A DNA stretch of 64,000 nt from a virus (IMGVR_UViG_3300033068_001655); one strand, 5' to 3'; shown: positions 3,203 through 64,000, numbered from the stretch's first letter. Numbers and translations are program-made. Notes: generated by a model not told the origin, from the letters alone.

Positions 3203-3204
3203 AG

Positions 3205-34577: not shown

Positions 34578-35218
34578 AGTATTAAACTTTCTTTATATAA
34601 GTATTCATCAATGACTTTTTGATCAATTTGATTTACTTGTTTTAATAAGTTTGGTAGTTTTGCAGGTTGTAAACCAATACTACCTACTACCTCACTACCA
34701 TTATTAAAATTGTTGATAATAAAGTCTGCCATTTCATTTTTCTCTAATGGGTCCATTTCAGTCTTTAATCTATCACGGATATTAAGTAATCCCTCATTTG
34801 TCATATAACGAGCTCTTTTTAATCTGTCTCCTTCTGGGGCAAATACACTAATAGTCATATCAACTTTTTTATCCCACTCTCTTTCAAATAAAATAGAAGA
34901 ATGAAAGATAGTATAGATTGCACCTTTTCTTTCCATTCTATCATTAAATTTTGCAAATGCATTGAAAAGGTCGTCTTGTACGATGTCAAGAATTTTATCA
35001 AATGCAGATTTCTTCAATCTACGGAAATCTAATTGATGATTGATAAAGATGTCAGAACCTAACTCTCTACGCACTTCACCTAATAATTCGTGATTGTGAT
35101 TTAAAATAAACTTTAAAATAAGATCTGCTTCAAAAACAGGAATACCTATTCTTTTGAATACTTGAATTGTAGTGTCTTTTCCTGAGTATCTGCTACCTGA
35201 TAATCCTAATGTAATCAT
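34568..35218 (-). CDS. Dephospho-CoA kinase-like P-loop kinase
   Basis: ITLGLSGSRYSGKDT...GIPVFEADLI parallels CoaE (IGLTGGIGSGKST...G.PVIDADxIA). Confidence 0.5.
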   Translation of the reverse strand: MITLGLSGSRYSGKDTTIQVFKRIGIPVFEADLILKFILNHNHELLGEVRRELGSDIFINHQLDFRRLKKSAFDKILDIVQDDLFNAFAKFNDRMERKGAIYTIFHSSILFEREWDKKVDMTISVFAPEGDRLKRARYMTNEGLLNIRDRLKTEMDPLEKNEMADFIINNFNNGSEVVGSIGLQPAKLPNLLKQVNQIDQKVIDEYLYKESLILCV

Positions 35219-37926: not shown

Positions 37927-38670
37927 TTATTTATTTAGTTGGTTAAAAATTGTTTGCATTCCGTTTGTAGCAACATCTTCAATGTGATGAAAATACGGTA
38001 ATTTATAATCTGGTATATCATACATCAACATATCTATTTTAGAAGGTTCGATGTAATATACAGGAGTTTTAAAATCTGTTAAAAATGGAATTTCATTTGC
38101 AGGAGATACTTGTAATGATGTACCAACAATTATACAGAAGTCACATTCTTCTGCAGCTTTTACTGCAGTATTTACATCAGAACTATCTAATTCTTCACCA
38201 AACCATACAATGTGTGGTCGTAGTTGAGAACCAGTTTTCTGACATTTATCACCTATTTTTATTTCTCCGTATCCTATATCAATAATTGTATCTAATGGAC
38301 TTGTTTTATGTGTGTACATACAACCTCTTGCTTTAGTTAGTTCACCGTGTAAGTGAATAACATTGGTAGAACCTGCTCTTTCATGTAGGTCGTCAACATT
38401 CTGAGTAACTACTGTTACATCAAAATTTTCTTCTAGTTTGGCAATTAGTTCGTGTGCTAAGTTTGGCACAACATCTTTTAACTGTGCTCTTCTTTGATTA
38501 TAAAAATCTAAAACTAACTCTCGGTCTTTTCGCCATGCACCTGGTGTGGCGACATCTTCAATCCTATGGTTATTCCATAAGCTCTCGGTAGAATCTCTAA
38601 ATGTTTCGATTCCACTTTCTTTTGAAACTCCTGCTCCAGTAAATACTAATATTTTTTTTCTTTCATTCAT
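37927..38670 (-). CDS. Sir2-family NAD-dependent protein deacylase (CobB-like)
   Basis: FTGAGVSKESGIETFRD, QNVDDLHERAG, Cys zinc ribbon. Confidence 0.8.
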   Translation of the reverse strand: MNERKKILVFTGAGVSKESGIETFRDSTESLWNNHRIEDVATPGAWRKDRELVLDFYNQRRAQLKDVVPNLAHELIAKLEENFDVTVVTQNVDDLHERAGSTNVIHLHGELTKARGCMYTHKTSPLDTIIDIGYGEIKIGDKCQKTGSQLRPHIVWFGEELDSSDVNTAVKAAEECDFCIIVGTSLQVSPANEIPFLTDFKTPVYYIEPSKIDMLMYDIPDYKLPYFHHIEDVATNGMQTIFNQLNK

Positions 38671-41700: not shown

Positions 41701-44162
41701 TTAAAAATTTAATAATCGCAGATACAATATTTTCTAAAAATGATAATATTTTATCTAATGCTTTTTATATATTCTCATCATTTGTTGGGGGTACTGATAT
41801 ATGGGATAATGGTATTTTATTTAGATCTATTTGGAACGGAATGATATTTAATAATGGTTTAGTAAGAGAATCTACTTGGTTAGATGGTACTTTCGTAAAT
41901 GGTCTATTCTATCTTTCTACAAAACCACCTTTATATAATATATTAGGTACTGGTTTAAATTTAACAATTGATTTACCATATTACAATTCAAATAATATAT
42001 TATCATATTATAGAAGCGGTGATACTACAATTGGTAACAATGATAGATTATCTTGGCAAAATGGTACATTTATCAATGGTGAATTTTATCAAAGTAGATG
42101 GGAATCTGGAGATTTCAATGGTGGTAAATTTTACTATTCTGATTTCTATGATGGTGTAATTAATGGTGGTATAATTGGTGATAAAACACTTTCAACAACA
42201 GATACTATAGTTTATAATGGTACTATCAATTATACAACTGTTGAAAATGCACTTTTTGAAGCTAATTATACTGATTATAATAAATCCGTACAAACTAATA
42301 TAAATTGGTATGATGGTGTATTTAATGGAGGTAAGTTTAGTACTTTTGATAATAATACGGCAACTTGGTACGGTGGTGTATTTAACGGTGGTGAATTCGG
42401 AGATTTGAATATACTAAATAGTTTTGGTAAACCAAAATGGAAAAATGGTACATTTAATGGAGGTAAATTTACATCAATATATGGTGTTGCTTCGAGTACA
42501 TATTCAACTACATCAATATTAAATGATATTAGTAACTATGCTTGGGAAGATGGTGTATTCAACGGCGGTGAGTTTGGATTTGGTGATTTTATAAGTTCTA
42601 GTTCATGGGCTAACAACTCAAGTTGGTTTAATGGAACATTTAATGGAGGTAAGTTTAAAGGAAAAGTTTGGAATAATGGAATATTTACGTTCGGTGAATT
42701 TTCTGGTAGTGGAGTTTCGGCAATTGGAGGAACTGCTTCAGATATTACAAATTCAAATCCAAATAATTTTGTAAAATCATTTATTGATAATGGTAATCAA
42801 TATTATGGATTATGGAGAAATGGATTTGTAACAGATACTAAGAGTAAATACTTAGATGAGGAAATTTTTACAGAATTAAAAAGAAATGACTTTAGTAAAA
42901 ATCAACAATTTGCATTATTGAAAAATATTCTTTGGTTAAATGGTACATTTAGTCATCCTAGTGCAACTATTCAAAATTCAGTTTGGTTAGATGGAGAATT
43001 TGGAAATGGTAGATTTGAAACTAGTTCTTTTAATCCATATGCAATAAGAGCAACTGGTTCCAGTGCGACATTTAACTTTAGTGATACTTGTAAATGGAGT
43101 AATGGTATTTTTGATTCAGGTGAATTTTCTATATCAAATTGGGAGAATGGTAGATTTATTATGGGTACTTCAACTGGTATGATTTGGAAAAATGGTATCG
43201 TAAATTATATGAATGCTTATAATGTATTCTGGGAAGATGGACTATGGAGAAATGGAAACTGGCAAGGTTCTTTCTATAATATAAATTCAGATGGAACTGT
43301 TACGGATCCTTATGTTCAACAAGTTTTAGATAGAGGTATGTCTTGGAGTGGAACTTCTTCTTGTCACATTTGGAGTTTGTTTTATAAAGAAAGTTTAACA
43401 GAATTTAGTGTACCACCAGTAAATGAAATGGCAACAACTGTTACTCAACAATTAGATTCAAGTGAGCCACTACCACCACTACCACCTACTCAATTTGGAT
43501 TGGTAAATTCTAGTACAAGTCCTGTACTGCCTAATCCATCTAATAAACAGTTAGGTTCAATTACTTGGACTGTTGATGGTGGTTCTACTAGTAAAGTAGG
43601 TACGGATTCAACCATTAGTGTTACTTTCACGGGAATTGATCAATTCAATCAAGTTAAGTGGGGAGTGGGTGGCCAAGATATAATTTTAATCAGTGGAATA
43701 TCTGATATAAGAACATTTACTCTACAACCTGGTGAAAATTATTTTGTAGTTAAGGCGACAAACCCGGATAATAATCAGGTTACTTATACTAATACTTTAA
43801 TTTATACTAAAATAGTACCATCATATGTTATAAATGATCCAATTAATCAAACAATAACACCTACTTTTAACAATAAAACAGGAACAATTGTTGTAAATAC
43901 AGCACCTGTGACATTAACACTTACTGCAAACGCGGCCGGTTCAAGTAGTACATTTGGTCTTTGTACAACAAAAGGTATTGCAACAATAAGTCTTTTTGGT
44001 AATCCTATTAACGGAAGTCCATTTAATACATCACTTGCATTAAATACTGGTACATCAGTAAGAACCACAACTATAACATTGACATCAGCAGGTACTTATA
44101 ATGTTACTTTATCAGGTACATTTAATGGATCTTCAGGTCTTGGAACTGTTACACTAACATAA
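38751..44162 (+). CDS. Giant (1803 aa) fibre/adhesin-like protein with W-x-N-G-x-F-x-G-G-x-F solenoid repeats and C-terminal Ig/FN3-like region
   Basis: Dozens of ~20-aa repeats (WYDGVFNGGKF, WKNGTFNGGKF, WEDGVFNGGEFG...). Pro-rich linker (PLPPLPPTQ) precedes Ig-like C-terminal domains. TTATATATAGTT motif upstream. Confidence 0.6.
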   Translation: MSSTNLVKKNLFTKPYLLTLDEISQIGQNMNLVGYDPQLNITSDDTNIVLKYGVPSSPKILNWVEPYKISGIDYTLFYTEVNSGLSIGDRVFIINGTYDSNLLIQADKYKKGHDGYKVLFIDKCKVVLDIEFTGSLPSNETTENNDDFDDFIKVYYLKDANDFLHVNRQITTRVSGNTVDFKFNNYQNNIVFTDSNFGPVNDTWGLNSGLSGAPGFFIKDGTAGWIDISSDFMIGSYSIAATNSNNKILILNNGFTYNGVDFKENSVYAWEYDPIKATFSWVVNVKHENNNVPILTKSNFRDGTFNGTFNGGLYGSNEKRITWGSTTSFWNHGTLLNTIWEKGIMESRYSQVESYIAEFDSYGMPYQKSTNPDNDGYGYNFVINSEIRNAVINNANVSNSTLGTSSNFSIIEEHVRGNLTDQFIQDNFNTTLINKAYFESCGISNTNIENAIIKNSRVSNSRLYSVKSINTHYKSSLFKNSNYISDNIIKVLDFDEFEYTTGNSTTHLVYKFYINKRSYEKFKFKDNFYIKGIKLNTTNIVFSDTEPVGNTILNFFDKKFKLGPWTEYVDNYDDSSNTFYKRPIRFNSFVSTPKENQYEFDSNGNTNVTGQVTNTKGYSLDIFVELDSTNIPNLTDQTISYKDIIDFSNAYIQNSDFESGIVENSNWNSGHHINYSYSNNLVGTSSQNGIYDISLTQSSLILNSIISNEEVESDYYKNGDIIFLNAVDYDSRGTVDGISISVPGSGYVTSNNISTNYGGTGFGLQISISASVVGGVSSLTHNGDGDGFTNDGIYSVTGGSGTGLTLNITHDISGLIDTYSINNPGSGYLVNDIISIVDAGFPATFNINSITNGEVISASVSTSGLFYEVGDIINIGTGNAKIVITSVTGSLTRLPDTYRISDLNTFTIDEVVATGSTSVLIDLLPVGVFSSYGANNRYGYLHKTKFYKSKILSGLFRRAYLKGSLIKNDTIDISDKDFTNIAKLKNLIIADTIFSKNDNILSNAFYIFSSFVGGTDIWDNGILFRSIWNGMIFNNGLVRESTWLDGTFVNGLFYLSTKPPLYNILGTGLNLTIDLPYYNSNNILSYYRSGDTTIGNNDRLSWQNGTFINGEFYQSRWESGDFNGGKFYYSDFYDGVINGGIIGDKTLSTTDTIVYNGTINYTTVENALFEANYTDYNKSVQTNINWYDGVFNGGKFSTFDNNTATWYGGVFNGGEFGDLNILNSFGKPKWKNGTFNGGKFTSIYGVASSTYSTTSILNDISNYAWEDGVFNGGEFGFGDFISSSSWANNSSWFNGTFNGGKFKGKVWNNGIFTFGEFSGSGVSAIGGTASDITNSNPNNFVKSFIDNGNQYYGLWRNGFVTDTKSKYLDEEIFTELKRNDFSKNQQFALLKNILWLNGTFSHPSATIQNSVWLDGEFGNGRFETSSFNPYAIRATGSSATFNFSDTCKWSNGIFDSGEFSISNWENGRFIMGTSTGMIWKNGIVNYMNAYNVFWEDGLWRNGNWQGSFYNINSDGTVTDPYVQQVLDRGMSWSGTSSCHIWSLFYKESLTEFSVPPVNEMATTVTQQLDSSEPLPPLPPTQFGLVNSSTSPVLPNPSNKQLGSITWTVDGGSTSKVGTDSTISVTFTGIDQFNQVKWGVGGQDIILISGISDIRTFTLQPGENYFVVKATNPDNNQVTYTNTLIYTKIVPSYVINDPINQTITPTFNNKTGTIVVNTAPVTLTLTANAAGSSSTFGLCTTKGIATISLFGNPINGSPFNTSLALNTGTSVRTTTITLTSAGTYNVTLSGTFNGSSGLGTVTLT

Positions 44163-45870: not shown

Positions 45871-48800
45871 ATGCCATTTATAGATACAAACATAGCACCA
45901 TCTTGGACATATGATGCCAATTTAGGAGGAATTAAAAGAATAGTTCTTAATGATACAAATATTAAATTTATTAAGAATACTGTCAATTCTACTTATAATT
46001 TTACTCAATTAAAAAACTATCAATTTGTTACAGGTATTACAGGTTCTGTTGCATTAGGAACGTTCTCTGTTAGATTTAGACCACCATTTACTACAAATAC
46101 TATTAATTTAAGAAGTAGTGTTTTAACTAATGGGGGAGTAGAATTCTATACATACAATAGTCCTAATAATACTCTAGCATCCAATACACTATTATCATAT
46201 GGCTCTGATAATTCTTTTACACAGTCAGTTATAAAATCTACTAAAGTAAATGAACTTAGTTTTCTTATAAATGGATTTAGAGAGTTTAGTTATTTAGATA
46301 GAGATATTGCAACATCATCTCAACCTAGTGGTTGGTTTTATGGTATTGCACCTGGTGATTTTGATCCTTCCTATAATTTCTTTTTATCTTCATCTACGAG
46401 TTCTATATCACCATCTTACTCTACATTGGGTTCAGGTTTAAACACAGTATCAAATAAGAACTTTATAGCAAAATATATTGAATATGATACATTTAACTTA
46501 GAATATAGTTTTTACACATCAACACCAGTGAATATGAGTATGTATTTACTGACTTTAGATAATTTAGGTACACCAGCAAATTGGGCATCACATATAGTAG
46601 CAACATTTTCAACAACTGGGACTTATAGTAATTTAGGATTAGTGGGTACTAACTATGATGGTACTAAAAATTATTTAGTTTTCTCTTGTGAAGCAGTTTT
46701 TAACACAGGTGTAAATTATACTTTAAATAGTAATGGTGATTCAGTACTAACTGATATTTACTCAAAATTATCTAATATAGAAATCTATGGTACTTATCAT
46801 CCAACTTCTAATAATAGATTGTCATTGACTGATACTACTACAAGTCCAATAGGTCTAAGTATTTCTAATGCTGCTTATTCATATACTTTATTAAACAATG
46901 GTGGAACATTCTCAATTCCATCTAGAATTGGTAACGGCGCATTTAGATCGGGTATATGGGAAAATGGAGTTTGGAATAATGGATGGAGAGATGATACCAA
47001 TACAAAGGATTTTGACGATGTTTATATTTCAGTTTTAACTGCATCTGATGTTTCTTGGAAAATAGAGATTAGAGGGGCAACCACTGCAATTGATGGATTT
47101 GCGACTGGTTCAAATGTTTCAATAGGAAATATCGTTGCAATTGATATAAATGATAATAGAAAACTTTTAAAAGATTATTATCAAATCGAATCACTTGGAG
47201 TTGATGCAGGTGATCCACAAAATGGTGTTGCACCGTATGGTTGGATTAGAGTTAATTTAGATACTTCATTTCCTTATAGAAGAATTGAAAAAGATTCACC
47301 TAATCATAAAATCAAAGTAACTAAGAATATTTGGTTATCAGGTGGTTTCTTTAATGGATATTTCTCTGGTGTTTGGAATAATGGTTTGTTTAAAGGCTAT
47401 CCATTATTGACAGAGATGTTTGATTCACATTGGATTGATGGATTATTTGATGGTGGACATTTTAATTCTACCTATTCTAATAACTATGATTTTATAGGAA
47501 TTGGTCCTAAAGTTGCTTGTAGTAATAATTTTATGGACTTAATTTTTGCATCATCATCCACAACACCTTTTTTACAAGGAGATTATATATTCCTTACCTT
47601 ATATGATATTGGTGAAGTATTTTTAACAGGTTCAGATCTTTATTCAGGGGTATGTCAAATTGTTGATGTTAAAGTAGATACGGAACCTTTAATGTCTGAT
47701 AATAACGGAGGGTTTATTCCAAATCCAAACTTTATGTATCAAACAATAACTATTAATAAAAGATCAATTGGTTTACCAAAATATTTTGATACTAATGCAC
47801 CCGCTGGTTATGCATATAGATATACTGCAACTTCTGTTATTCAAAATTTTAAATTTTATGATAATAATAGATCTAAAATAAAGTCATCTGATAGTCAATT
47901 ATCCAATGCAGTATTTAGTTTTAACTCTTGGATAGATGTAAATTATGATGATACAAGATCAGTAACATTAGGAAGAGATTTTAGAGTATATGAACCACTG
48001 ACAAAAAAGTCTGTTAGTAGAAATAATTTATTTGGTTATCCTACTTATGATATTTTATCAAGTGCTTCTCGTTTCAGAGATAGTAACTCACTAGATACTA
48101 AATTATATAAATTGGGGACAAAATATAAGGTGTTTAATGATTTTATTGGAGATTACTCAAAATTCAATGAACCATTTAGTGATTTAGACTTTGGTAGTTT
48201 TATCAGTGCAGGATGGACATATTCGTATGCAAACACATCTGACTTTAAAATTAAAAGAACTGAAAGTTTAATAACATTAAATGATAGTCAATCAACTGCA
48301 CTTTTAAACTCTGGTGTTACTGGTGACGAATTATATATCACTGCAAGTAATACTGGAATTATTTTAAATAATAGTAATGTAAATATAGAGAAATCTAGAT
48401 ATTCAGTAGTAGAGTTTGATGTAGTAACATATAGTGTTCCCAATACAATTTATACTTATGATAATCCAGATATTTATCAAAAAAGAAGTATTAGTAATGT
48501 AGGACTTTCTTTTAGTGAAACAACTAATACTGTAGATGCTTACATAACAAGTAGTTATAACTTAGTTGGTTCTCCAACATTCTCAGTAGGTGACATTGTA
48601 GTAATGGTTGATATATATGGTGATGTACCAGGAACTACAATTAATTTAAAGGCACCTAATGGTAAAATTGTGAATCTTAAAAAAGTAGGTACTGGTTTAG
48701 GTAGTAGAATGAATCAAACTAGATTTAGTTTTAGAGATATTTATGATAGATTTTCTTATATTACTACTCCATATAGTTTAAATAACACAACAATAGCATA

Positions 48801-51096
48801 TTCTGATACTTATCAAATGGATAAAGAAATCGGACAGGGAAATATAGCACCATTTTTATCTAATACTACTTTATTATCAGACTTAGTTTATACTAATGGA
48901 GTTCCTACTATTTATGGTACATGGACTTTATTTATAAAGTATAATCCACTTGCAGTAAATGTTTGTGATTTAGTTAATTGGTCTATTGATATACAATATA
49001 AACACTTAATTATTGAGGATAATGAACCAACTGTGTCATTCCCTATATTGAATTTTAACAATCTTAATTATGATATAACAACTCAATTGTCATGGTATGA
49101 TGATGTACAAATTTATAAAAGAATGAACTATCTACCTATACAAAATAATGTTAATCATTTATTGACACAAAATACATTTAGATTAGACTCTGTTGAATTA
49201 GCAACTCCTGCTAGATGGGGTGGCTTTGGTAAAAATCAAAAAACTAAAAAGTATGAGTATTTCTATAATAAAACTGATATGATGTTAAGTATCAATGGAA
49301 ATGGTGCAACTGGTGGTAGTACATCAATGGTTATATTAGATAATCTTAATATGTATGAGGTTGATATGATTCCATTCTTTAAATACTTTGATACACCTAA
49401 TATTTATAAAGGTGTTGTATTTCCTTATATTGGAATATCACCTGAAATAGATTACACAAATTCAGACTTTGTATTTATTGACAATATTACAATTGGTTTA
49501 GATAGTATTAACCCAGTGGCAGTTGATACTACATTTATTGATTGTGGGACTGCATCATCTGCAACTCTACAACTTAGTGCAAGTATAAATGGATTAGTCA
49601 CACCACCACTTTCTTGGACTACATCATCATACCAGTTTGTAAATATGTCAAATAGTAATACACCTGGTTCAGTAACTTGTTCTACAACATTTGATTCGAT
49701 CAGTTGGACTATTACCCCGTTATTATCTGGATTACCTCCAGTTACAATTTCTAATGCAAATAGTTTATATCCATCAGTATTAGGGTTGACTGCAAGTGGT
49801 GAATATAGTGTAGAGATTACAAGTCTAATTAAAAATGGACCACCATCTCAAGCAATTGGTTTACTTAATAATGGTGTATCAATTAAAGCAACTATTAAAG
49901 TGAATCCTAAACCGACTACAATAATTAATATTCAACCATTGGCACTACAATTTGATTTTGTACCTGGTGATGCAGTATCTCATATTATAGATGAGACTAA
50001 CTTATTGAATAATTACTCAAATAGTAATAATAATAATCCAAGTGCATTTGTTATAGAAAGTTTACCAATTGGAAGTTTATTTTATAATGGTGTGTCAATC
50101 ACATCAGTTCCTTTTGGACCTATCGCAATTGTAAGTGGTTCTATACCTGGTTTATTGTATTACCCAGAGGGTAATCCGCCATTAGTTCCACAAGCAGCTT
50201 CTTTTAGTACATCATTCGACTATACAATTATTGATAATGAGAATAATCCTTATACTACAACAATGCTAATTGTTGCTACAATACTACCTTCTACTATAAT
50301 AGTAGATACACCATTATCTAAATCGATAAATTATAGTTTTAATGAAAGTAATTTACAAGCAACAAAATACTTTAATGAGGTTGATTTAGTTCAAAATTAC
50401 ATTAATACTCCTAATGGTACACCTGCGAATCATATTAAAATTTATAGTGTACCATCAACAGGTGAGTTATCATATAATGGTACCCTAGTGTCTGTAAATG
50501 ATGTAATACCTTATATTGATCTAATTAGTGGTGCTCACTTTGCTTATCATCCACAAGGAATAAACCGTTTAGATACTACAGGTGGTAATTTTAATACAAC
50601 ATTCACATATACTGTATTAGATCCTCAGTCTAATGAAAGTAACTTAGTTACTTTTACTTTAAACTGTACTCAAATTTTAGTAATAAATGGATTTACATTA
50701 GGTCCATATGGTACTATGTATAATCCAGGAGGATTATCAGGAGGTAATACAAGTCATGACTTACTTTTAGGATATCCTTCAAATACGGCAATACTAAAAT
50801 GGAAGGCAACATATACATTAGTTGCTGAAACATATACAGATGCAAGAGTTGCATTTTCTACAAATGATTCTACACCTGCAGTGGTAACGTTGTGGTATGA
50901 TTTTAATGAGGTTAATGGACAAACACCAGGTATTCATTATACAGCTTGGAGAACACTAATACCTTCTTCTGCGGTATATGGTAATCCTATTTCTTGTTTA
51001 TTAAGAAGTAACAATGGACATACTATAACAATTACTGTACAAGCATTAGATTCAAGTAATAATATCCTAGGAACTTATACATTTACATCACCATAA
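45871..51096 (+). CDS. Giant (1741 aa) fibre/adhesin-like protein sharing the W-x-N-G repeats
   Basis: IWENGVWNNGW, WLSGGFFNGYFSGVWNNGLFKG, WIDGLFDGGHF repeats; TAATATATAGTTT directly upstream of the ATG. Confidence 0.6.
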   Translation: MPFIDTNIAPSWTYDANLGGIKRIVLNDTNIKFIKNTVNSTYNFTQLKNYQFVTGITGSVALGTFSVRFRPPFTTNTINLRSSVLTNGGVEFYTYNSPNNTLASNTLLSYGSDNSFTQSVIKSTKVNELSFLINGFREFSYLDRDIATSSQPSGWFYGIAPGDFDPSYNFFLSSSTSSISPSYSTLGSGLNTVSNKNFIAKYIEYDTFNLEYSFYTSTPVNMSMYLLTLDNLGTPANWASHIVATFSTTGTYSNLGLVGTNYDGTKNYLVFSCEAVFNTGVNYTLNSNGDSVLTDIYSKLSNIEIYGTYHPTSNNRLSLTDTTTSPIGLSISNAAYSYTLLNNGGTFSIPSRIGNGAFRSGIWENGVWNNGWRDDTNTKDFDDVYISVLTASDVSWKIEIRGATTAIDGFATGSNVSIGNIVAIDINDNRKLLKDYYQIESLGVDAGDPQNGVAPYGWIRVNLDTSFPYRRIEKDSPNHKIKVTKNIWLSGGFFNGYFSGVWNNGLFKGYPLLTEMFDSHWIDGLFDGGHFNSTYSNNYDFIGIGPKVACSNNFMDLIFASSSTTPFLQGDYIFLTLYDIGEVFLTGSDLYSGVCQIVDVKVDTEPLMSDNNGGFIPNPNFMYQTITINKRSIGLPKYFDTNAPAGYAYRYTATSVIQNFKFYDNNRSKIKSSDSQLSNAVFSFNSWIDVNYDDTRSVTLGRDFRVYEPLTKKSVSRNNLFGYPTYDILSSASRFRDSNSLDTKLYKLGTKYKVFNDFIGDYSKFNEPFSDLDFGSFISAGWTYSYANTSDFKIKRTESLITLNDSQSTALLNSGVTGDELYITASNTGIILNNSNVNIEKSRYSVVEFDVVTYSVPNTIYTYDNPDIYQKRSISNVGLSFSETTNTVDAYITSSYNLVGSPTFSVGDIVVMVDIYGDVPGTTINLKAPNGKIVNLKKVGTGLGSRMNQTRFSFRDIYDRFSYITTPYSLNNTTIAYSDTYQMDKEIGQGNIAPFLSNTTLLSDLVYTNGVPTIYGTWTLFIKYNPLAVNVCDLVNWSIDIQYKHLIIEDNEPTVSFPILNFNNLNYDITTQLSWYDDVQIYKRMNYLPIQNNVNHLLTQNTFRLDSVELATPARWGGFGKNQKTKKYEYFYNKTDMMLSINGNGATGGSTSMVILDNLNMYEVDMIPFFKYFDTPNIYKGVVFPYIGISPEIDYTNSDFVFIDNITIGLDSINPVAVDTTFIDCGTASSATLQLSASINGLVTPPLSWTTSSYQFVNMSNSNTPGSVTCSTTFDSISWTITPLLSGLPPVTISNANSLYPSVLGLTASGEYSVEITSLIKNGPPSQAIGLLNNGVSIKATIKVNPKPTTIINIQPLALQFDFVPGDAVSHIIDETNLLNNYSNSNNNNPSAFVIESLPIGSLFYNGVSITSVPFGPIAIVSGSIPGLLYYPEGNPPLVPQAASFSTSFDYTIIDNENNPYTTTMLIVATILPSTIIVDTPLSKSINYSFNESNLQATKYFNEVDLVQNYINTPNGTPANHIKIYSVPSTGELSYNGTLVSVNDVIPYIDLISGAHFAYHPQGINRLDTTGGNFNTTFTYTVLDPQSNESNLVTFTLNCTQILVINGFTLGPYGTMYNPGGLSGGNTSHDLLLGYPSNTAILKWKATYTLVAETYTDARVAFSTNDSTPAVVTLWYDFNEVNGQTPGIHYTAWRTLIPSSAVYGNPISCLLRSNNGHTITITVQALDSSNNILGTYTFTSP

Positions 51097-51809
51097 TCTC
51101 TAATTAGAAGTAGATATCCAACTTTACCTGGCTCTGTTTTAGAACAGTGACCCATTGCATCAATCTTGGTTTCATCACCAGTTAGTTTGATCTTAGTAAG
51201 TTTTTGTTTCCCTAAAATACGTCTTTCTCCTTTACAAGTTGTACAAGGGTTTAAGCCTACTTTTCCTTTACCAAAACAGAATGGACAATCTTGATCTCTA
51301 TATTTTCCAGTACCTTCACATAAATCACATCCATCTTCTGAATCAAATATCTTTAATATGTTACCATCATTATCTTTAATTAAGATTTTAGAAGAAAGAT
51401 CTTTTCCAGTACCATCACAAGGTTTACAACGAACCCATCTTTCATACTCTACTGTTCCATCAAAAGTATCATCTACCTTTAGATAGATATTATAGATTTC
51501 GTTTTTCTTAAATTGTTCATATTTATCTTTAGTATCATCATGTGAATAATCAAAGTTTGTTTCAAAAAGTTCATAGTATTCGTTATAACAATTACCAAAT
51601 TTACTTTTTTTATCATAATCTTCTCTTTCTTCTCCACAAAGGACATCATATGCTTCTGTCATTTCACCAAAAATAACTGCATCAGACTCTTTATTATTTT
51701 TATCAGGATGTAGTATCTTGGCATTGTTATAGTATGCTTTTTTAATTTCTTTTAATGTTGAATCTTTTGAAATTCCAAGTATTAGGTAATAATTTTTATT
51801 TAGGTTCAT
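51075..51809 (-). CDS. DnaJ-like co-chaperone (J domain + CxxCxGxG zinc finger)
   Basis: YYLILGISKDSTLKEIKKAY...LHPDKN (HPD motif); CKPCDGTGK, CDLCEGTGK, CPFCFGKGK, CTTCKGE repeats. Confidence 0.7.
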   Translation of the reverse strand: MNLNKNYYLILGISKDSTLKEIKKAYYNNAKILHPDKNNKESDAVIFGEMTEAYDVLCGEEREDYDKKSKFGNCYNEYYELFETNFDYSHDDTKDKYEQFKKNEIYNIYLKVDDTFDGTVEYERWVRCKPCDGTGKDLSSKILIKDNDGNILKIFDSEDGCDLCEGTGKYRDQDCPFCFGKGKVGLNPCTTCKGERRILGKQKLTKIKLTGDETKIDAMGHCSKTEPGKVGYLLLIRDYGDVNV

Positions 51810-55477: not shown

Positions 55478-55810
55478 TTAAAAGTTTGGATTATCTAGGT
55501 AATAAGTATTATGTTCTGTAATGAACTCGAAGTTATCGTGTAAAGTCTTACAATAACCTTTAAAAGCATGTACATCTTCTTCGTTTAGTTTAAACCATTC
55601 ACCTCTTACTTTTTTAGTTTTAAAAATTCGGTGTAAACTACTTTCTATTTTAGTCCCCCATTTTGATTTAAACGAGTCAACTAAGTAAAGGTCCGCGGCA
55701 TTTCCAGTTCTAAATTCTTTCAGCCTTGTTTCAATTTTTCTTTTAGTGAAGCCTATCTTATGTAGTTTTTCACCATCTATATCAGCACAAATTAAGTAAA
55801 TGTTCGTCAT
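55478..55810 (-). CDS. T5orf172-domain (GIY-YIG-like) protein
   Basis: IYLICADIDGEKLHKIGFTKRKIETRLKEF...GEWFKL matches the T5orf172/MUG113 pattern. Confidence 0.5.
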   Translation of the reverse strand: MTNIYLICADIDGEKLHKIGFTKRKIETRLKEFRTGNAADLYLVDSFKSKWGTKIESSLHRIFKTKKVRGEWFKLNEEDVHAFKGYCKTLHDNFEFITEHNTYYLDNPNF

Positions 55811-56994: not shown

Positions 56995-57947
56995 TATTTC
57001 AATTTAATCTGTATGTATAACCAAAATGAGTGTGGTTTAACACTTATAAGGACTTTTTCACCCCATTTCTTAGTGATGATCCAATTATTAAAGTTTATCT
57101 TAATGTTTGATAATTCTCCTTCATCTAATTTACCATTATCCCATTTACCAACACCATAATAAGCAAATGTTATTACTTTGTCAGTAATAGTTGGTTTCAT
57201 TTCTTTTTCAAAATAACCTGGTTTAAACTCTTTCATATCATTCTTAATCTTACCTAGCATAAGTATATCTGAATATGATAAGTTTACAATTTCCTTTTTC
57301 AAAGAAGTTGCTGATTTAGACTCAATAGTTACTAACCATCTTACTATTGAAGGAGTTAGTTTAAATTGTCCAATAGGATTTAATTTATCATATGCAATTC
57401 CATATTCAAATGTACCATCACATTTAATACCAAAATATAATGCACAATCATTTTTACCATAATCAATCATTTCAATATATCTAGTCAATGATTTGAATCT
57501 ACTAAATACTGATTTTACATCAGTTGTAGATAAGTCTGTGTAATGCCAAAGTAATAAGAAATGTGAAGGACATTTTTCACTGTTTGGTCCTTTTTCTTTT
57601 TGACCTAATGCAGTTAAAACTTTTAAGAATGAATTAAAAATAGATTTTCCAGCAACTGTAATATCAGTTGATTCGTTTATCTCTGTTGATACAATAACTT
57701 CGGCATCTTTATCTTCTATACCATTTTGAAGGTAAGTATCAATTTGTGCTTTGATGTCATCTTGTTCAGATTTTTCTAATGTATTGATTGCATTAGATAA
57801 TCTAATATCCGGTGAGACATCTTCTAAGAAACGGTTTACTATGTTTTTAACATATTCATCATCATACAAAGACTCAACCCACTCTCCAAGTGAATTGAAG
57901 TCTTGTAATTCAGATTCTTTAATAAACTCTAAATACTTTTTTATCAT
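56994..57947 (-). CDS. Hypothetical protein (MIKKYLEFIKESE N-terminus)
   Basis: 317-aa ORF; TAATATATACTC directly upstream of the ATG. Confidence 0.45.
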   Translation of the reverse strand: MIKKYLEFIKESELQDFNSLGEWVESLYDDEYVKNIVNRFLEDVSPDIRLSNAINTLEKSEQDDIKAQIDTYLQNGIEDKDAEVIVSTEINESTDITVAGKSIFNSFLKVLTALGQKEKGPNSEKCPSHFLLLWHYTDLSTTDVKSVFSRFKSLTRYIEMIDYGKNDCALYFGIKCDGTFEYGIAYDKLNPIGQFKLTPSIVRWLVTIESKSATSLKKEIVNLSYSDILMLGKIKNDMKEFKPGYFEKEMKPTITDKVITFAYYGVGKWDNGKLDEGELSNIKINFNNWIITKKWGEKVLISVKPHSFWLYIQIKLK

Positions 57948-57975
57948 AGAGTATATATTAAATTTTATTTTACTT

Positions 57976-60900
57976 TTATTTAATTTTTCTATTTACTAAT
58001 ATACCTAATCCATATGATTCCTTATAATTGTAAAATTCTAATTCAAAATTATTTGCAAGTTCTTGACAAGCTCTTTTTACCTCAGAGAAAGATTCAGTAT
58101 CATGGAAAATAGTAACTTTTGAGTGTTGTACTGCCCATTCACCACATTCATAAGTGTGTTCAAAATCGTGTACTATATCAATATGTGTTAGACCATAATA
58201 ATCAGAATTATCTTTAATAAAGTCTTTATAGTCAGATTTTATTAAATTTATATTCTTATATGATTCTAAGTAACCTTTAGTTTGTTCTAAATGTTCATCT
58301 TTTAAGGTACTATGTATATCACCAGTGAAGGTATCTACCCCAATTACATTAGTAAAATAGTTTGCTAATGCTGAAGTTGAATAACCATATTCTACACCAA
58401 ATTCTAATGCGTTAGTTGTATCAACTTCAAATCTTTCGATAATATCTTTTAAGATAGTTGGTATATTTCCCCAAGCTGAAGGATGTGGTTGTTCGGCTAA
58501 TCTAGGAAAATCTCTACAATTTGGAATAAATTCTACTTCATTGTTACTTCTATAATATGGAGTTTTTCCTGAATCTATCGTAGATATAACTTGTTTTGAC
58601 GTAATTGACTTACTACATTCAAATTGCTTATCAGTTCCTTTATTTATTGGACACCAATTCCAATCTCCTGGATCTAATTTGTGAGAGTTAAAACACCCAT
58701 TACAAACTGATTCATTGAATATTCTAATAACATTATCATCTAATGGTTCTGTTACTGGTTTACTAAATCCCGATATGATTACAGTCTTTTTGTTTAATGC
58801 CCAGGATAACCAACTGATACCAGAACTTATACCAATAAACATTTCACAGTTATATAAATAAGTCATCAAAGTATCCATAGAACTATCCGTCATATAAATA
58901 ACACCATTTGGATTCTTATTACCCATATAGCCATCTTCTTCTGAACTTACAATAACAACTTCATAACCATTTAATTTATAATGATCTACAATCTCTTGCC
59001 ATCCGGTTGGATTATTCCAATATTTTGCTTGTGCCGTTGAGTGTATTGCAATACAAATATATTTAGTATCTAATGGTGATTCGGTATTTTTAACTTTAAT
59101 AAACGGTTTTATTGAACTTTCTTTTAATCCTAAAATATCTGATGTTGTTGATTGTAAAGGAATATTTTTGAAGTCTCTAGGATTTGTAAAAAGATTTACC
59201 TTATTATTATCATAGAACCATCCTATCGAATAATTACAATAAGTATTTTGATAGGTTGTTCCTGGATTTACAAAATTTAACCTAGGGTATTTTTCAATGT
59301 CAAATAAAAAGTTTTTAAATGTACTAAGTATTACAGTACAGTTATTTTTCTCTGCAAACTCATTTACATGTGGCATCCACGCTAGTGTATCTCCTAAAGA
59401 TGATGATTCTAAACTAACTCTAACAATTTTATTATCTAGGTTAAATTTATCAATAGTTATCTCTTTGGTAGATAGATTTTCAATTTCAATTCTCCAGTTC
59501 ACAAAATATTTAATAGAGCATTTAGTCCATTGATTTGCAGATATAGCACATTCATATAATGTTTTATTCTTATCTGAGTCAATAAATTTAACAAAATAAT
59601 TATAATCTGACTCACCAAGTATTTCAACAAATGGTCCATCTAAATAATTTATTGTTATTTTATCTTCTTTCTTATTGATAAACGGTATATTATCTAGTAT
59701 ACCAGGTGTTTTAATAATAATATTGGCATTTGCGTCGTCGATAGTAAATAAATCATCATTTACATTTATTCCTTTTACTAAGTCGGATTTATTGACTTTT
59801 ATAAATTTACAATAAGTGTCTGCAATAACATTATATTGTTTATTATCTATCTTTAAGTGATATTTCTCATTGTTATTTTGTAGAAAAATGATATAATAGT
59901 TATTATCATGTTCAGAAATCATACATCCTGAACTATATACCCAACGAATATTAACTGAAACTGCATTTACAATATTATTATCTTTTATTGAATCAATATC
60001 TATTAAATGATATTTAATATTATTTTTAAGTACTGCGGAACCAATAACATTCTCTAGTATTACAGAACCCGGATATTTAAAGTAATTTTTCTTTGAATTT
60101 AGATCTTTTACAATATTATTAAAAACTGAGATATTAGTAGAGAAAAATCCAGTATTTAAAGCAAATTTATCATTATAAGTTTCCCATTTATAACTAACTA
60201 TATCATTACTATTTAATAACAGTGAGTTATTTTCTAATGTATTATCATTTATAATATAATCATAGTTTACAAAGTGAACCTTCTCAAAACCATTAAGTTC
60301 TGCTAATATGGCACCATTTTTTATTAGTTTAAGTGCGGCATAACTATGATTAAATTTGAATGGTTGTGTAATATCAAAATCTTTAAAACTCCAAAATGAA
60401 AATATTTTATCATTAGTATATTCATTTGACTCTTTAAGTGTTATTATAGGATTATCTCTGTCAATTATAATATAATCCACCAAACTAGAAATGTGTTGAG
60501 GTACATCTATATGTGATGATAAGATTACCGTATATCCGTTTCTCTTGTTTGCCAATACACACTTTTCTAGTAAATCTTGTTTATGTTCATCGTCTGCATG
60601 TGACATTACAACAACAGCATCTTTTTTATTTACTTCAAATTTTATGTTCATATCAATAATATTTTTTAAGGTTTTATAACCATCAATACCTATTTTAGTC
60701 CAATTGAACCTCTCCTTAATTATTTCAGCGTCTTTTAAAGCACATTCTTTCTTTGTTTGATAATTATCATAACAATCAATTAAAACTCTCTGTAAGTCAT
60801 TATAATCAGGTTCTGCATATAGTCCTGGTGTATCACCTGCAAAACCTAAGTCTTTACCAATATTTGCAGGTAGTTCGGTTCTAATTTCAACTGGATTACC

Positions 60901-61803
60901 TAATCCTTTTGCAAATTCCAATTGAGCACCCCAGTTAGAATATATGGTCGGTGTCCCTGCAGCCATTGCTTCTATTAGAGGAATATTCCATCCTTCACTA
61001 CGAGCACAAGTAATTAAAACATTACCTGTTTTAATATAGTTTACATACTCTTCGTATTTTGGAAAGTGAAGAACTTTTATTCTATCATCATTAAAGTTAT
61101 AGTGTTTTAATCTTTCTTCGGTAGAATTAAACCCATCAATTGAATATGGATTATCTGCACTTAGTATAAGTTCAACATTGTCATTATTAGGAAATGATTT
61201 TAAGAATGTATCAATAATCTCAGGTACTGCTTTTCTATAGTCCCATCTACCAAAAAACATAAATTTGAATTTATCATTATTAGTTTCGGTATGATGTTCA
61301 AAGAATATAGAATTTACTCCTTCATTTACAATGAAAACTTTATCTGCTGGATATCCTTGTTTAATGATCATATCTTTATGCCATTGAGTAACAACCCAAA
61401 GATAATCAAACTTTAGAAGTTGATTAAAAAAACCTTGTTCGAGTTCAGTACTTTCCCAAACCGTGTAAGCAATTTTAATGGGTGCAGTATATTCTTGGTA
61501 GAAATATAAATGATGCATATCCATAAGTACAATATCAACATCTTGTTTAAAATCTTCTTTATTTTTCCAAGGTAAATTTGGAAATGAATATGATATAGGA
61601 TAATCAGAGTATGTATTATCGGAATTACTTAATGTGATTCTATCTAAAATTGAATAATCAATTTCATCTAATTGTGGATTGGACTCCCAGGTATAATTTC
61701 GTACTCTTAGATCGACGTGTTTAGATAGTTCTCTAAAGAAGTTTCTTGCGTGTGCTGCAAATCCGGTATGACCTAGATAGCAGGTATGTGCTCTTACATT
61801 CAT
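57976..61803 (-). CDS. Multi-domain glycosyltransferase (GT4-like N-terminal domain, GT9/heptosyltransferase-like domain, C-terminal methyltransferase-like domain), 1275 aa
   Basis: GT4 motif EGWNIPLIEAMAAGTPTIYSNWGAQLEF; GT9-like motif CEMFIGISSGISWLSWALNKKTVIISGFS; C-terminal LEFGVEYGYSTSALANYFTNVIGVDTF (Rossmann/SAM-MTase-like). Confidence 0.7.
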   Translation of the reverse strand: MNVRAHTCYLGHTGFAAHARNFFRELSKHVDLRVRNYTWESNPQLDEIDYSILDRITLSNSDNTYSDYPISYSFPNLPWKNKEDFKQDVDIVLMDMHHLYFYQEYTAPIKIAYTVWESTELEQGFFNQLLKFDYLWVVTQWHKDMIIKQGYPADKVFIVNEGVNSIFFEHHTETNNDKFKFMFFGRWDYRKAVPEIIDTFLKSFPNNDNVELILSADNPYSIDGFNSTEERLKHYNFNDDRIKVLHFPKYEEYVNYIKTGNVLITCARSEGWNIPLIEAMAAGTPTIYSNWGAQLEFAKGLGNPVEIRTELPANIGKDLGFAGDTPGLYAEPDYNDLQRVLIDCYDNYQTKKECALKDAEIIKERFNWTKIGIDGYKTLKNIIDMNIKFEVNKKDAVVVMSHADDEHKQDLLEKCVLANKRNGYTVILSSHIDVPQHISSLVDYIIIDRDNPIITLKESNEYTNDKIFSFWSFKDFDITQPFKFNHSYAALKLIKNGAILAELNGFEKVHFVNYDYIINDNTLENNSLLLNSNDIVSYKWETYNDKFALNTGFFSTNISVFNNIVKDLNSKKNYFKYPGSVILENVIGSAVLKNNIKYHLIDIDSIKDNNIVNAVSVNIRWVYSSGCMISEHDNNYYIIFLQNNNEKYHLKIDNKQYNVIADTYCKFIKVNKSDLVKGINVNDDLFTIDDANANIIIKTPGILDNIPFINKKEDKITINYLDGPFVEILGESDYNYFVKFIDSDKNKTLYECAISANQWTKCSIKYFVNWRIEIENLSTKEITIDKFNLDNKIVRVSLESSSLGDTLAWMPHVNEFAEKNNCTVILSTFKNFLFDIEKYPRLNFVNPGTTYQNTYCNYSIGWFYDNNKVNLFTNPRDFKNIPLQSTTSDILGLKESSIKPFIKVKNTESPLDTKYICIAIHSTAQAKYWNNPTGWQEIVDHYKLNGYEVVIVSSEEDGYMGNKNPNGVIYMTDSSMDTLMTYLYNCEMFIGISSGISWLSWALNKKTVIISGFSKPVTEPLDDNVIRIFNESVCNGCFNSHKLDPGDWNWCPINKGTDKQFECSKSITSKQVISTIDSGKTPYYRSNNEVEFIPNCRDFPRLAEQPHPSAWGNIPTILKDIIERFEVDTTNALEFGVEYGYSTSALANYFTNVIGVDTFTGDIHSTLKDEHLEQTKGYLESYKNINLIKSDYKDFIKDNSDYYGLTHIDIVHDFEHTYECGEWAVQHSKVTIFHDTESFSEVKRACQELANNFELEFYNYKESYGLGILVNRKIK

Positions 61804-61843
61804 TAAAATATTTTATTATTTATATGTAAATAAAATATTTTGT

Positions 61844-64000
61844 TTATATTAGATAATCATATGGACGTATTAGTGGAAATTCTTCAAATAGACCATACCC
61901 TGATACGGATAAATCTGGAGCTGAAACTGCAGGACCACTAAGCTCAGTAAAAGAACCATCATATGGGTTACCACCACCAACATCATAATTATGTACATTT
62001 CTTGAAACATACCATATTGGTATGCCAGTACTAAGATTCTTTAATGGAGTTCCTTTTCTTATAATAGGATCAGGAGCTACTTCTATTGCCATATTTCCTC
62101 TAAAAATAACACAGTTATCTATCCACATACCTATTGCACCATTATCTATAACTGATAAGTGATAATCACCATCTAAACTATTATTGGTATCCGCATTTAC
62201 AAAACGACTATTTCTAAATCTAAGTTCTGTGGATATTCCATGTCCTTCTCTTTGTGTTGCATATGTATAAGTATGTGTATAGATTGCACCAAGATTATCA
62301 TCATAATTTAGTAATGTAATTTGACTATTATATATTTCTACAATAGCCCCTATACCATCTGCTTCTTTATCTTTTAGAAATCCCATTGCTATATTTGATA
62401 ATATTTCTGGTGGGGCACCCTTATCTACACTAAATTTATCATTTGTCATAAGATTACAATTTCTTAGGGTAAGTCTTGAATAAGAATCCATTAAAAATGA
62501 TGAGTATTGTGTTGTCACAGTGTTAAATGGTGAGTCAAAAATACTAACATTTTCAAAAAGCATCTCTACATTTTGATCAATATAAGCAATATATCCAGAG
62601 ATTGGACTATCATAACCGTTAACATTACCAATATTTTCTATTGAATTTGTACTATCTTCAGATGTTACCGTTACGGTGAACTTTTTGCCACTCTCTATAA
62701 GACTAGCATGTGTTTGAAAAATTGGTGAATCATATAATCCTAAATCATCTTTGTTATATGTGTATAAAATACGTACACCTGGTTTCAAATGTAATTTCCA
62801 ACTTTTCTTTGCGATCAGTGGTGAATTGATAAAATGATCATATGAACTACTTGGAAGTGTATTATAAATACCACCTACTGTTATTGCATTTGTGTTCATA
62901 CTTCCATTTTCACCTGGCCAAACTTCAATAACTCCATTTTCAAATGGACCTGATCCATTACCATCCATGTCAAGACCGTTTACCTCATAGAATGCACCAT
63001 TTATAGTTGCAAATGGTTTATTAAAGTCACCACGCATACCAGTTGAATCATCACCATTAGGATGAACAAAACAAACATTTGTATATGGAAAACTGGAACC
63101 TCCACCACCTGGAATATCTACCGTTACAGCACCAGATCCAGATGCAACAACACCAGCACCGGTAAAGTCAATTGATACAACATTTGTTGTAACTAAACTT
63201 CCTTCATCATATATTGTTATAGGACTACCTGTACCTGAAGTACCAGATGATCCAGAACTTCCAGATGAACCACTTGAACCGGATGAACCAGATGTACCTC
63301 TTGTACCAGAACTTCCGGATGAGCCACTAGAACCAGATGTTCCGCTACTACCAGATGAACCACTTGAACCGGAACTTCCAGATGAACCACTTGAACCAGC
63401 CGTTCCACTACTACCAGACGTTCCACTACTACCAGACGTTCCACTACTACCAGATGAACCACTTGAACCGGATGTACCGGAACTTCCAGATGTACCTCTT
63501 GTACCAGAAGAACCGGATGTACCAGAAGAACCGGATGTACCAGAAGAACCGGATGAACCACTTGAACCGGATGTACCAGATGAACCACTTGAACCGGATG
63601 TACCAGATGAACCACTTGAACCGGATGTACCAGATGAACCGGATGAACCACTTGAACCGGATGTACCAGATGAACCAGAAGAACCACTACTACCGGATGA
63701 TCCACTTGAGCCTGATGAACCACTAGTTCCACTAGAACCTGAGTTTCCACTAATACCAGAAGTACCCGAAGAACCTGAAGTTCCGGTACTTACACTTAAA
63801 TTATATTCTATATCATCAGAATTTATTAAAAATGGATTTGTAATAGATAATACAAAAGTACTATTTATATTAGTTGAACCAGATGTTATGTAAACTAATG
63901 TTCCGTTAATAAAGTCATCTGATGTTGATGCATCTAAAGATCTTACCCAAGTAGATGAACTAACAACATATATCCCATTTTCTGATAATGTTGATTGGTC
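61844..64000 (-). CDS. Collagen-like (Gly-Ser/Thr-Ser)n stalk fused to a C-terminal beta-helix (pectate-lyase-fold, tailspike/depolymerase-like) domain; 5' partial
   Basis: Hand translation shows the frame of the listed 61844-63037 ORF stays open upstream through 64000. Residues encoded by 63230-63790 are ~62 consecutive G-X-Y triplets (GSSGSSGTSG...). The C-terminal 397 aa show beta-solenoid periodicity. Confidence 0.7.
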   Translation of the reverse strand, partial: DQSTLSENGIYVVSSSTWVRSLDASTSDDFINGTLVYITSGSTNINSTFVLSITNPFLINSDDIEYNLSVSTGTSGSSGTSGISGNSGSSGTSGSSGSSGSSGSSGSSGSSGTSGSSGSSGSSGTSGSSGSSGTSGSSGSSGTSGSSGSSGSSGTSGSSGTSGSSGTRGTSGSSGTSGSSGSSGSSGTSGSSGTSGSSGTAGSSGSSGSSGSSGSSGSSGTSGSSGSSGSSGTRGTSGSSGSSGSSGSSGSSGTSGTGSPITIYDEGSLVTTNVVSIDFTGAGVVASGSGAVTVDIPGGGGSSFPYTNVCFVHPNGDDSTGMRGDFNKPFATINGAFYEVNGLDMDGNGSGPFENGVIEVWPGENGSMNTNAITVGGIYNTLPSSSYDHFINSPLIAKKSWKLHLKPGVRILYTYNKDDLGLYDSPIFQTHASLIESGKKFTVTVTSEDSTNSIENIGNVNGYDSPISGYIAYIDQNVEMLFENVSIFDSPFNTVTTQYSSFLMDSYSRLTLRNCNLMTNDKFSVDKGAPPEILSNIAMGFLKDKEADGIGAIVEIYNSQITLLNYDDNLGAIYTHTYTYATQREGHGISTELRFRNSRFVNADTNNSLDGDYHLSVIDNGAIGMWIDNCVIFRGNMAIEVAPDPIIRKGTPLKNLSTGIPIWYVSRNVHNYDVGGGNPYDGSFTELSGPAVSAPDLSVSGYGLFEEFPLIRPYDYLI
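63230..63790. repeat. Coding tandem repeat array (9-bp GXY units; higher-order 27-bp units gaaccacttgaaccggatgtaccagat) inside the collagen-like gene
   Basis: Near-perfect tandem repeats visible directly in the sequence. The track's ORFs 63217-63750(-) and 63337-63726(+) are wrong-frame artefacts of this array. Confidence 0.85.

Follow-up and report, generated by a model that had tools for sequence, protein, structure and literature searches.

Enzymes of the TibC/AAH family are thought to serve autotransporter adhesins, and the glycans of the collagen-like protein BclA bear a methylated terminal sugar. To our knowledge, self-glycosylation of the virion by tailed phages has so far been shown only for mycobacteriophage capsid and tail-tube proteins. 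TibC acts in the cytoplasm, where it hyper-glycosylates a fibrous adhesin on its serines (PMC4358343). In C. difficile, the gene for SgtA adjoins bclA3, and the enzyme attaches O-glycans to Thr and Ser residues of collagen-repeat peptides (PMC7157674). Among viruses, Mimivirus L230 combines a lysyl hydroxylase with a glucosyltransferase acting on hydroxylysine (PMC9614988), and mycobacteriophage virions are reported to be glycosylated by phage enzymes (Freeman et al. 2023, as cited in PMC12619734). Here we describe a locus in a 64,000-nucleotide (nt) stretch of viral DNA (IMGVR_UViG_3300033068_001655), which we call the window and to whose full length all positions refer. In this locus, the gene for a collagen-like fibre is followed by the gene for a 1275-amino acid (aa) enzyme of four modules, one of which is related to TibC. 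As judged from sequence comparisons, this enzyme probably glycosylates protein, with the Ser/Thr-rich stalk of the fibre as its main acceptor.

Both genes are encoded on the minus strand of the window, which is AT-rich (about 27-30% G+C). The visible 3' part of the fibre gene (61844-64000) comprises 718 codons and ends with a TAA stop at 61844-61846; as the frame is open up to base 64000, the start codon lies outside the window. An AT-rich spacer of 40 bp (61804-61843, minus strand) separates it from the enzyme gene (57976-61803), which begins with an ATG at 61803. The order along transcription is fibre gene, spacer, and then enzyme gene, so that the initial annotation, which had placed the enzyme gene upstream of the fibre gene, has to be reversed. 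The two genes are probably co-transcribed, because the spacer is 40 bp long and no terminator-like site was found between them. The sequence TATAAATA is located in the spacer at 61817-61824, 14 nt 5' of the enzyme ATG, and was considered as a T4-like late promoter; since the motif is not enriched in the AT-rich window (29 observed, 22.4 expected), no promoter is claimed there. A megablast search found no cultured-phage match to positions 57000-64000. The missing 5' end of the fibre gene was not recovered by an exact-protein look-up of the enzyme, which was empty, by the 317-aa protein encoded downstream, which matched contigs of 2-3 kb only, or by exact 52-mer scans of metagenome_contigs and viral_contigs, which gave no match.

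The fibre begins with a non-repetitive part (63785-64000, minus strand; 72 visible residues in the translation), presumably the virion-attachment end. The profile phrog_17264 aligns visible residues 2-106 of the fibre with its positions 33-137, and from this offset about 30 residues would be missing. PHROG tail-fibre families also match the fibre, the collagen repeats driving the match. The non-repetitive part is followed by the collagen-like stalk (63227-63784, minus strand; visible residues 73-258), the proposed O-glycosylation acceptor. Where the initial annotation had estimated about 62 uninterrupted Gly-X-Y triplets, we count exactly 62, although, for a repeat assembled from a metagenome, this number could be off. 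These comprise 40 GSS, 16 GTS, and two GTR triplets, and one each of GIS, GNS, GTA, and GTG; X and Y are thus mostly Ser or Thr, with Ser at position Y in 58 of the 62 triplets. Glycine recurs at every third residue without a break, and the Pfam Collagen model matches the stalk with an E-value of 3.9e-26. The 186 residues include no Pro, no Lys, and two Arg, a composition that provides neither the Pro or hydroxyproline nor the charged pairs that stabilize collagen.

At the DNA level, the repeat units of the stalk are 64-82% alike, and the Ser codons TCA, TCT, AGT, and TCC are all common. This divergence of the units, together with the variety of codons, indicates that the periodicity is kept as protein and does not reflect fresh duplication of DNA. 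The additional entries that appear in the open reading frame (ORF) list at 63217-63750 come from reading the repeat in a different frame. That the Gly-X-Y region is coding, as had been assumed, is borne out by the frame, which stays open for 718 codons, and by the retention of the Gly periodicity despite diverse codons.

The C-terminal head of the fibre (61847-63226, minus strand; 460 aa) is predicted to be a right-handed parallel beta-helix with a pectin-lyase fold. An AlphaFold2 model built with nine homologues is all-beta, with a predicted local distance difference test score of 67.7 and a predicted template-modelling (TM) score of 0.75, and its matches to pectin-lyase-fold structures agree with the beta-helix first proposed for this region. 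Among these matches, enzymes and non-enzymatic beta-solenoid adhesins (PfbA, the L. reuteri serine-rich repeat protein (SRRP) binding region, Vag8, and UpaB) score alike, with at most 16% identity between the head and each of them. Matches in BFVD are weak (E-values of at least 1.5e-3, TM-scores of at most 0.44), and the family is rare, with 43 cluster representatives at E-values of at most 1e-10 among 1.84 billion. The head may be a receptor-binding domain, a polysaccharide-degrading domain, or both; for the depolymerase activity suggested initially, support comes from the fold.

The enzyme had been annotated as a 1275-aa fusion of a GT4 domain, a GT9 domain, and a methyltransferase-like domain. 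The fusion is real; the annotation had missed a further module with a probable GT-A fold, and the GT9 part is specifically of the TibC/AAH type. Module 1 (aa 1-385; 60649-61803, minus strand) is a GT4-type glycosyltransferase of the GT-B fold. It matches Pfam Glycos_transf_1 over aa 173-297 (E=3.3e-11, 43.5 bits against a cut-off of 26.4) and phrog_2170 (E=1e-27), and it contains the E-x7-E motif, E270 and E278 in SEGWNIPLIEAM, both invariant in alignment A1. It is weakly similar (22-26% identity) to glycosyltransferases of Streptomyces phages. Module 2 (aa 396-606; 59986-60618, minus strand) has no Pfam match and was tentatively assigned to the GT-A, or nucleotide-diphospho-sugar-transferase, fold; an invariant N-Y-D-Y (D515) is located where GT-A enzymes have DXD.

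Module 3 (aa 730-1077; 58573-59616, minus strand) is a protein O-glycosyltransferase of the TibC/AAH (BAHT) type. It matches E. coli TibC (PDB 4rap_A) with an E-value of 2.5e-53 over TibC residues 37-384, nearly the whole chain, and the Aah/TibC equivalog TIGR04414 with 282 bits (cut-off 200) over model positions 26-372 of 374. Its Pfam match is Glyco_transf_9 (aa 906-1040, E=1.7e-8), and with the lipopolysaccharide (LPS) heptosyltransferase model TIGR02193 it scores 22 bits against a cut-off of 185. The catalytic base of TibC, Asp-110, corresponds to D805 (59389-59391), the beta-phosphate ligands Thr-226 and Lys-230 to T923 and K927, and Trp-305, which contacts heptose O4, to W998. The four iron-finger cysteines of TibC (Cys-339, 342, 358, and 370) align with C1034, C1037, C1051, and C1063 (58615-58704), and the hydrophobic residues at the thumb tip are alike in kind, Phe and Val in TibC and Tyr and Met in the window enzyme. 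Across 162 phage and metagenome domains, the position of Asp-110 is conserved in 100%, Thr-226 in 99%, Lys-230 in 97%, Trp-305 in 99%, and the four cysteines in 97.5%. Arg-286 of TibC, which contacts adenine N1, is replaced by Leu-979 in the window enzyme, and an Arg is found at this position in 9% of the phage and metagenome domains. Because this adenine-reading residue is not conserved, ADP-heptose is a doubtful donor, and module 3 may use another.

Module 4 (aa 1078-1275; 57979-58572, minus strand) is a probable methyltransferase-like domain of class I, as far as profile matches indicate. Methyltransf_24 matches aa 1133-1229 (DNA 58117-58407), with a score above the cut-off of 26.3 bits when the 198 aa are scanned alone (28.4 bits) and below it when the whole protein is scanned (25.1 bits); eight of eight clade members match this model when their C-terminal domain is scanned alone. 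No sequence match to module 4 was found in the PDB. Two sister proteins (P0007 and P0021) are 69-76% identical to the enzyme over aa 1-1077 but have a different C-terminal domain, a canonical CmcI/Methyltransf_24 domain, to which module 4 showed no similarity by hhalign. These unlike C-terminal domains suggest that a domain was replaced at the same position.

Relatives of the enzyme were sought by scanning IMG/VR, which resulted in 34 loci. Of all loci taken together, 31 encode both a TibC-like and a GT4 module, and about 24 of these have a co-oriented Ser/Thr-rich collagen-like ORF within 10 kb, and the X and Y positions of these partner ORFs are 69-99% Ser or Thr. When the repeats of 28 partner ORFs were masked, the remaining sequences fell into 13 unrelated groups, the head of the window fibre being unique among them; what the partners have in common is the triplet, with Ser (44%) or Thr (43%) at X and Ser (81%) at Y. 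On a 515-kb contig, an 86%-identical enzyme is preceded by a 2323-aa fibre with 152 Gly-(Ser/Thr)-Ser triplets. At the locus P0133, the same head as in the window (53% identity) is carried on a Ser/Thr-rich stalk and the N-terminus of an enzyme begins 76 bp downstream, and at P0125 the same head is carried on a Pro/Gln-rich stalk with no adjoining glycosyltransferase. The multi-module architecture was found in more than 100 protein clusters, on contigs of up to 648 kb, and its modules are shuffled: the methyltransferase precedes the TibC-like module in Microcystis phage Mel-JY01, and elsewhere a fusion of GT4 and TibC-like modules accompanies a separate GT-A-like protein or all modules are separate. 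Modules that are fused in varied orders or encoded side by side form the pattern expected of cooperating parts.

Mel-JY01 (GenBank PP395634.1) is the sole cultured phage with a long match to the enzyme (41% identity over aa 3-1077), and an 805-aa ORF of GTS, GSS, and GTR triplets (635-3052, plus strand) is located directly 5' of its enzyme gene. In the GenBank record, antisense 'hypothetical proteins' rich in Pro, Val, and Glu (1-651 and 739-2298, minus strand) are annotated over this collagen-like ORF, and the enzyme is annotated only as 'methyltransferase FkbM'. A 'cytidylyltransferase-like' protein of the same phage was considered as a candidate for donor synthesis; its Pfam match is marginal, and neither the PDB nor NCBIfam gave a match. 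In another relative, a 386-kb contig (L005), a 931-aa protein rich in Thr, Ser, and Asn (6948-9743, plus strand), with no Gly-X-Y repeat and no Pfam or NCBIfam match, is encoded directly 5' of the enzyme, and a Ser/Thr-rich collagen-like ORF of 130 triplets is located further upstream (1914-4085).

The linkage was also examined in reverse. A set of 120 IMG/VR stretches (1.05 Mb in total, median 9.4 kb) was chosen solely by the presence of at least 12 Gly-[STRCW]-[STRCW] codon triplets. A coding Ser/Thr-rich collagen ORF was present in 116 of these stretches, and 11 encode a glycosyltransferase module, TibC-like in eight cases. These eight TibC-like modules in 1.05 Mb of DNA selected for Gly-X-Y repeats represent a far higher density than the four records in 2.3 Gb of cultured phages. 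A base-rate control based on DNA-ligase loci yielded three loci only. Within the phage loci, loss of Arg-286 did not correlate with the presence of a collagen partner (7 of 10 versus 17 of 27).

Bacterial relatives of module 3 were identified in 185,579 species genomes, and the best 80 of 322 were examined. In these 80, the TibC-like part alone matches, save for two contigs of metagenome-assembled genomes in which the match reaches into the GT-A-like module, and no full-length four-module protein was found among them. The 30 loci nearest the phage module, at 35-52% identity, are from Methylococcales, Polaromonas, and other Burkholderiales. In 19 of the 30 (22-23 with a looser threshold), the gene next to the TibC-like one encodes a small lipoprotein or secreted protein that consists of G-T-S, G-S-S, or G-T-T repeats, whereas a repeat neighbour of this type is absent from all 50 loci grouped with E. 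coli TibC. One such protein combines a signal peptide with about 40 GTS triplets (L182, 11172-12053, minus strand), and another is encoded just 5' of the TibC-like gene (L176, 7282-8232, plus strand); further repeat proteins were found at L173 (11136-11450, minus strand) and at L169, L172, L174, L175, L177-L180, L185, L186, L188-L190, L193, and L197. All six canonical TibC-type loci that were examined have AIDA-repeat neighbours, three of them also with an autotransporter beta-domain. Clustering by average linkage on p-distances, which is not a rigorous phylogeny, placed the window domain in one cluster with 42 phage domains and all 18 repeat-linked bacterial domains, and E. coli TibC with 50 others. 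Arg-286 is kept in 48 of the 50 canonical members, in none of the 29 bacterial members of the subclade, and in four of its 42 phage members. In the paper library that was searched, we found no account of the phage system or of a TibC-like gene beside a Gly-Thr-Ser repeat protein in bacteria, and searches combining TibC or heptosyltransferase with phage or collagen-like proteins returned nothing relevant.

Module 3 thus resembles TibC/AAH enzymes in its near full-length homology, in its conserved Asp, Thr, Lys, Trp, and four Cys residues, and in the position of its gene, which like that of TibC adjoins the gene of a serine-rich fibrous surface protein. It differs in being part of a four-module phage protein, in having a partner with Gly-(Ser/Thr)-Ser repeats instead of the 19-residue beta-helix repeats of the AIDA type, and in the loss of Arg-286, and it belongs to a separate subclade with the Methylococcales and Polaromonas enzymes. 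Neither the fibre nor any other candidate acceptor is matched by an AIDA, autotransporter, or target-repeat model. Because both the AIDA-type acceptor and the adenine-reading Arg are missing, module 3 would be best described as representing a variant subclade near the TibC/AAH family.

The closest functional analogue is the SgtA-BclA3 pair of C. difficile, although the enzymes are unrelated. In this system, as with BclA of B. anthracis, Thr/Ser-rich collagen-like repeats are O-glycosylated by a glycosyltransferase encoded in a neighbouring gene, which is the arrangement proposed here. SgtA is composed of GT-A and TPR domains, uses UDP-GlcNAc, and is not homologous to the TibC-like module; BclA has Gly-Pro-Thr repeats and is located on the spore, whereas the repeats in the window are free of proline and would be located on the virion. 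Mycobacteriophages offer the parallel of phage glycosyltransferases that modify the phage's own structural proteins, as we propose for the window. Their glycans are on the C-termini of capsid and tail-tube subunits, and neither a TibC-like enzyme nor a collagen-like acceptor is reported for them. The initial annotation had also drawn a parallel to the glycosyltransferases and collagen-like proteins of giant viruses. This holds as an analogy, since Mimivirus likewise encodes collagen-like proteins and an enzyme that glycosylates them, but the chemistry differs: L230 acts on lysine, the 62 triplets contain none, no lysyl hydroxylase domain was found in the window enzyme with Pfam, and the linkage in this tailed phage would be direct O-glycosylation of Ser and Thr. 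Membership of the L230 system was rejected on these grounds. SRRP adhesins, which are glycosylated with GtfA and GtfB, differ in that their repeats are not Gly-X-Y and their export is by accessory Sec; no homology to them was detected beyond the fold class.

With the conserved linkage in phages and the Gly-Thr-Ser neighbours in bacteria, the proposal that the Ser/Thr stalk is a substrate for O-glycosylation, originally a guess, has gained support from gene order. For the acceptor, the sugar, the order in which the modules act, and the benefit to the phage, we infer the following scheme. In the cytoplasm of the infected cell, the TibC-like module would add the first sugar to Ser and Thr hydroxyls of the stalk, as its family function and the linkage to Gly-(Ser/Thr)-Ser genes suggest. 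Judging from domain content and precedents, the GT-A-fold and GT4 modules would then lengthen it to a short oligosaccharide, and the methyltransferase-like module would cap the glycan, perhaps in the manner of the methylated terminal sugar of BclA. This would yield a stiff, hydrated, and protease-resistant bottle-brush stalk, densely O-glycosylated, that presents the beta-helix head, which would bind and possibly cleave a polysaccharide of the host surface. Glycosylation might also stabilize a proline-less triple helix.

Such a system would be the second suggested for self-glycosylation in tailed phages, widespread in metagenomes and aimed at the fibres of host recognition, where it would affect adsorption, host range, stability, and recognition by antibodies. 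It would widen the scope of the TibC/AAH family through the link to collagen-like Ser/Thr repeats in phages and bacteria, and in glyco-engineering, use could be made of one protein that starts, lengthens, and caps an O-glycan on a simple repeat. A bolder version of this proposal, which we regard as tentative and rather less likely to be right than wrong, holds that the TibC-like subclade of very large aquatic phages, methanotrophs, and Betaproteobacteria is a dedicated Gly-(Ser/Thr)-Ser glycosyltransferase that uses a donor other than ADP-heptose, and that dense O-glycosylation lets a proline-free collagen-like sequence fold as a stable rod. If true, this would be an unrecognized route to glycoprotein fibres on virions and bacterial surfaces.

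Several observations weigh against glycosylation of the stalk by this enzyme. The acceptor is indicated by gene neighbourhood alone. The replacement of Arg-286 by Leu, and by residues other than Arg across most of the clade, makes the donor and the chemistry uncertain, and the methyltransferase assignment of module 4 is marginal. A scan of window ORFs of 100 aa or longer revealed no gene for nucleotide-sugar synthesis. At between seven and ten of the related phage loci, no Ser/Thr-rich ORF was found up to a distance of 10 kb. Conversely, a glycosyltransferase module was found at only about 10% of the Ser/Thr-rich collagen loci in the reverse test, a minimum figure given how short the stretches are; with so few modules nearby, such stalks are not obviously dependent on the enzyme. 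Finally, the known acceptors of TibC are beta-helical AIDA-type repeats, and the fibre head, itself a beta-helix, could be the target.

This last point leads to the alternative that the enzyme modifies the head, or other Ser/Thr-rich virion proteins, and not the stalk. TibC recognizes the beta-helix of TibA (PMC4358343), the fold of the head resembles that of the autotransporter passengers Vag8 and UpaB, and the enzyme of the 386-kb relative is directly preceded by the 931-aa protein without collagen repeats. The heads, however, vary among loci, with 13 unrelated groups of which that of the window is one of a kind; the same head is also found on the Pro/Gln-rich stalk of P0125 without an adjoining enzyme. 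The proteins encoded beside the bacterial enzymes of this subclade are short, repetitive, and devoid of a beta-helix, and neither AIDA nor strand-loop-strand repeat models match any candidate acceptor. We therefore consider modification of the head or of another virion protein unlikely.

Alternatively, the enzyme could be the product of an auxiliary gene with which the phage alters the LPS core, O-antigen, or capsule of the host envelope, for instance as a barrier to superinfection; its proximity to the fibre gene would then be explained by a variable region of host interaction. Glycosyltransferases in the fibre region of pelagimyophages have been interpreted in this way (PMC7029224), and GT4, GT9, and GT-A folds are typical of the synthesis of LPS and exopolysaccharide. 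The core module, however, passes the protein O-glycosyltransferase equivalog and fails the LPS heptosyltransferase model by a wide interval (22 versus 185 bits), an association with Gly-(Ser/Thr)-Ser genes is seen repeatedly, in unrelated phages as well as in bacteria, and the best 80 bacterial matches include no four-module counterpart of full length. Envelope remodelling accordingly seems improbable as the main role. That the stalk is an unglycosylated flexible linker or an assembly artefact, with the enzyme acting elsewhere, such as on phage DNA, is very improbable: Gly/Ser-rich sequences are classic flexible linkers, this stalk without proline and nearly without charge is unlike characterized bacterial collagens, and metagenome assemblies are error-prone at repeats, but the spacing of Gly by three is unbroken across 186 residues in spite of varied X, Y, and codons, the same stalk design is found in more than 100 independent contigs, and a DNA glycosyltransferase was rejected because no domain of the enzyme resembles one.

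Glycosylation of the fibre stalk by the enzyme encoded next to it, the reading that we prefer, would take place in a phage, as the remainder of the window indicates. The window is part of the genome of a very large tailed phage and not of a giant eukaryotic virus; a giant-virus origin was rejected on the basis of the transfer RNA (tRNA) array, the SbcC-like and T5orf172 genes, relatives on IMG/VR contigs, and proteins 62-87% identical to the enzyme on contigs of 386-648 kb that have T4-like markers close by. The phage-type context recognized at the outset was therefore correct. Besides the array of 13 tRNA genes (1181-4014, minus strand), the window encodes a tyrosyl-tRNA synthetase (5746-6999, minus strand), a YqeY-like protein (6999-7403, minus strand), SmpB (10471-10914, minus strand; 169 bits), and an S1-domain protein (26549-27637, plus strand); no gene for a transfer-messenger RNA to go with SmpB was found in the window. 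An NAD-dependent ligase and an SbcC-like ATPase are also encoded. Genes of the homing-endonuclease type are located on the minus strand at 277-1113 (HNH and HTH), 4018-4428 (HNH_3 and NUMOD4), 9598-10452 (LAGLIDADG), and 55478-55810 (T5orf172/MUG113).

Host-like accessory genes encode a sigma-70-family factor (13195-13797), a Sir2 protein (37927-38670), an SPFH/Band-7 protein (31052-32944), an M28 peptidase (30227-30973), DnaJ (51075-51809), dephospho-CoA kinase (34568-35218), and thioredoxin (11452-11769), all on the minus strand, and an M16 peptidase (35323-36432) on the plus strand. Four large ORFs on the plus strand, encoding 1068 aa (18102-21308), 1364 aa (21319-25413), 1803 aa (38751-44162), and 1741 aa (45871-51096), have no informative Pfam match; one of the four matches phrog_29329, a family of unknown function, and the 1803-aa ORF has only sub-threshold matches, to phrog_15350 and Pentapeptide_4. 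Ser/Thr-rich Gly-X-Y matches were also found in two IMG/VR contigs that bear a giant-virus (GVMAG) label (L053 and L089), and tailed phages are therefore not the sole carriers of such stalks. Within the tRNA array, the gene at 2969-3044 was reported by ARAGORN as "tRNA-???" with the four-base anticodon gaag, and could be a tRNA resembling frameshift suppressors or an artefact of prediction.

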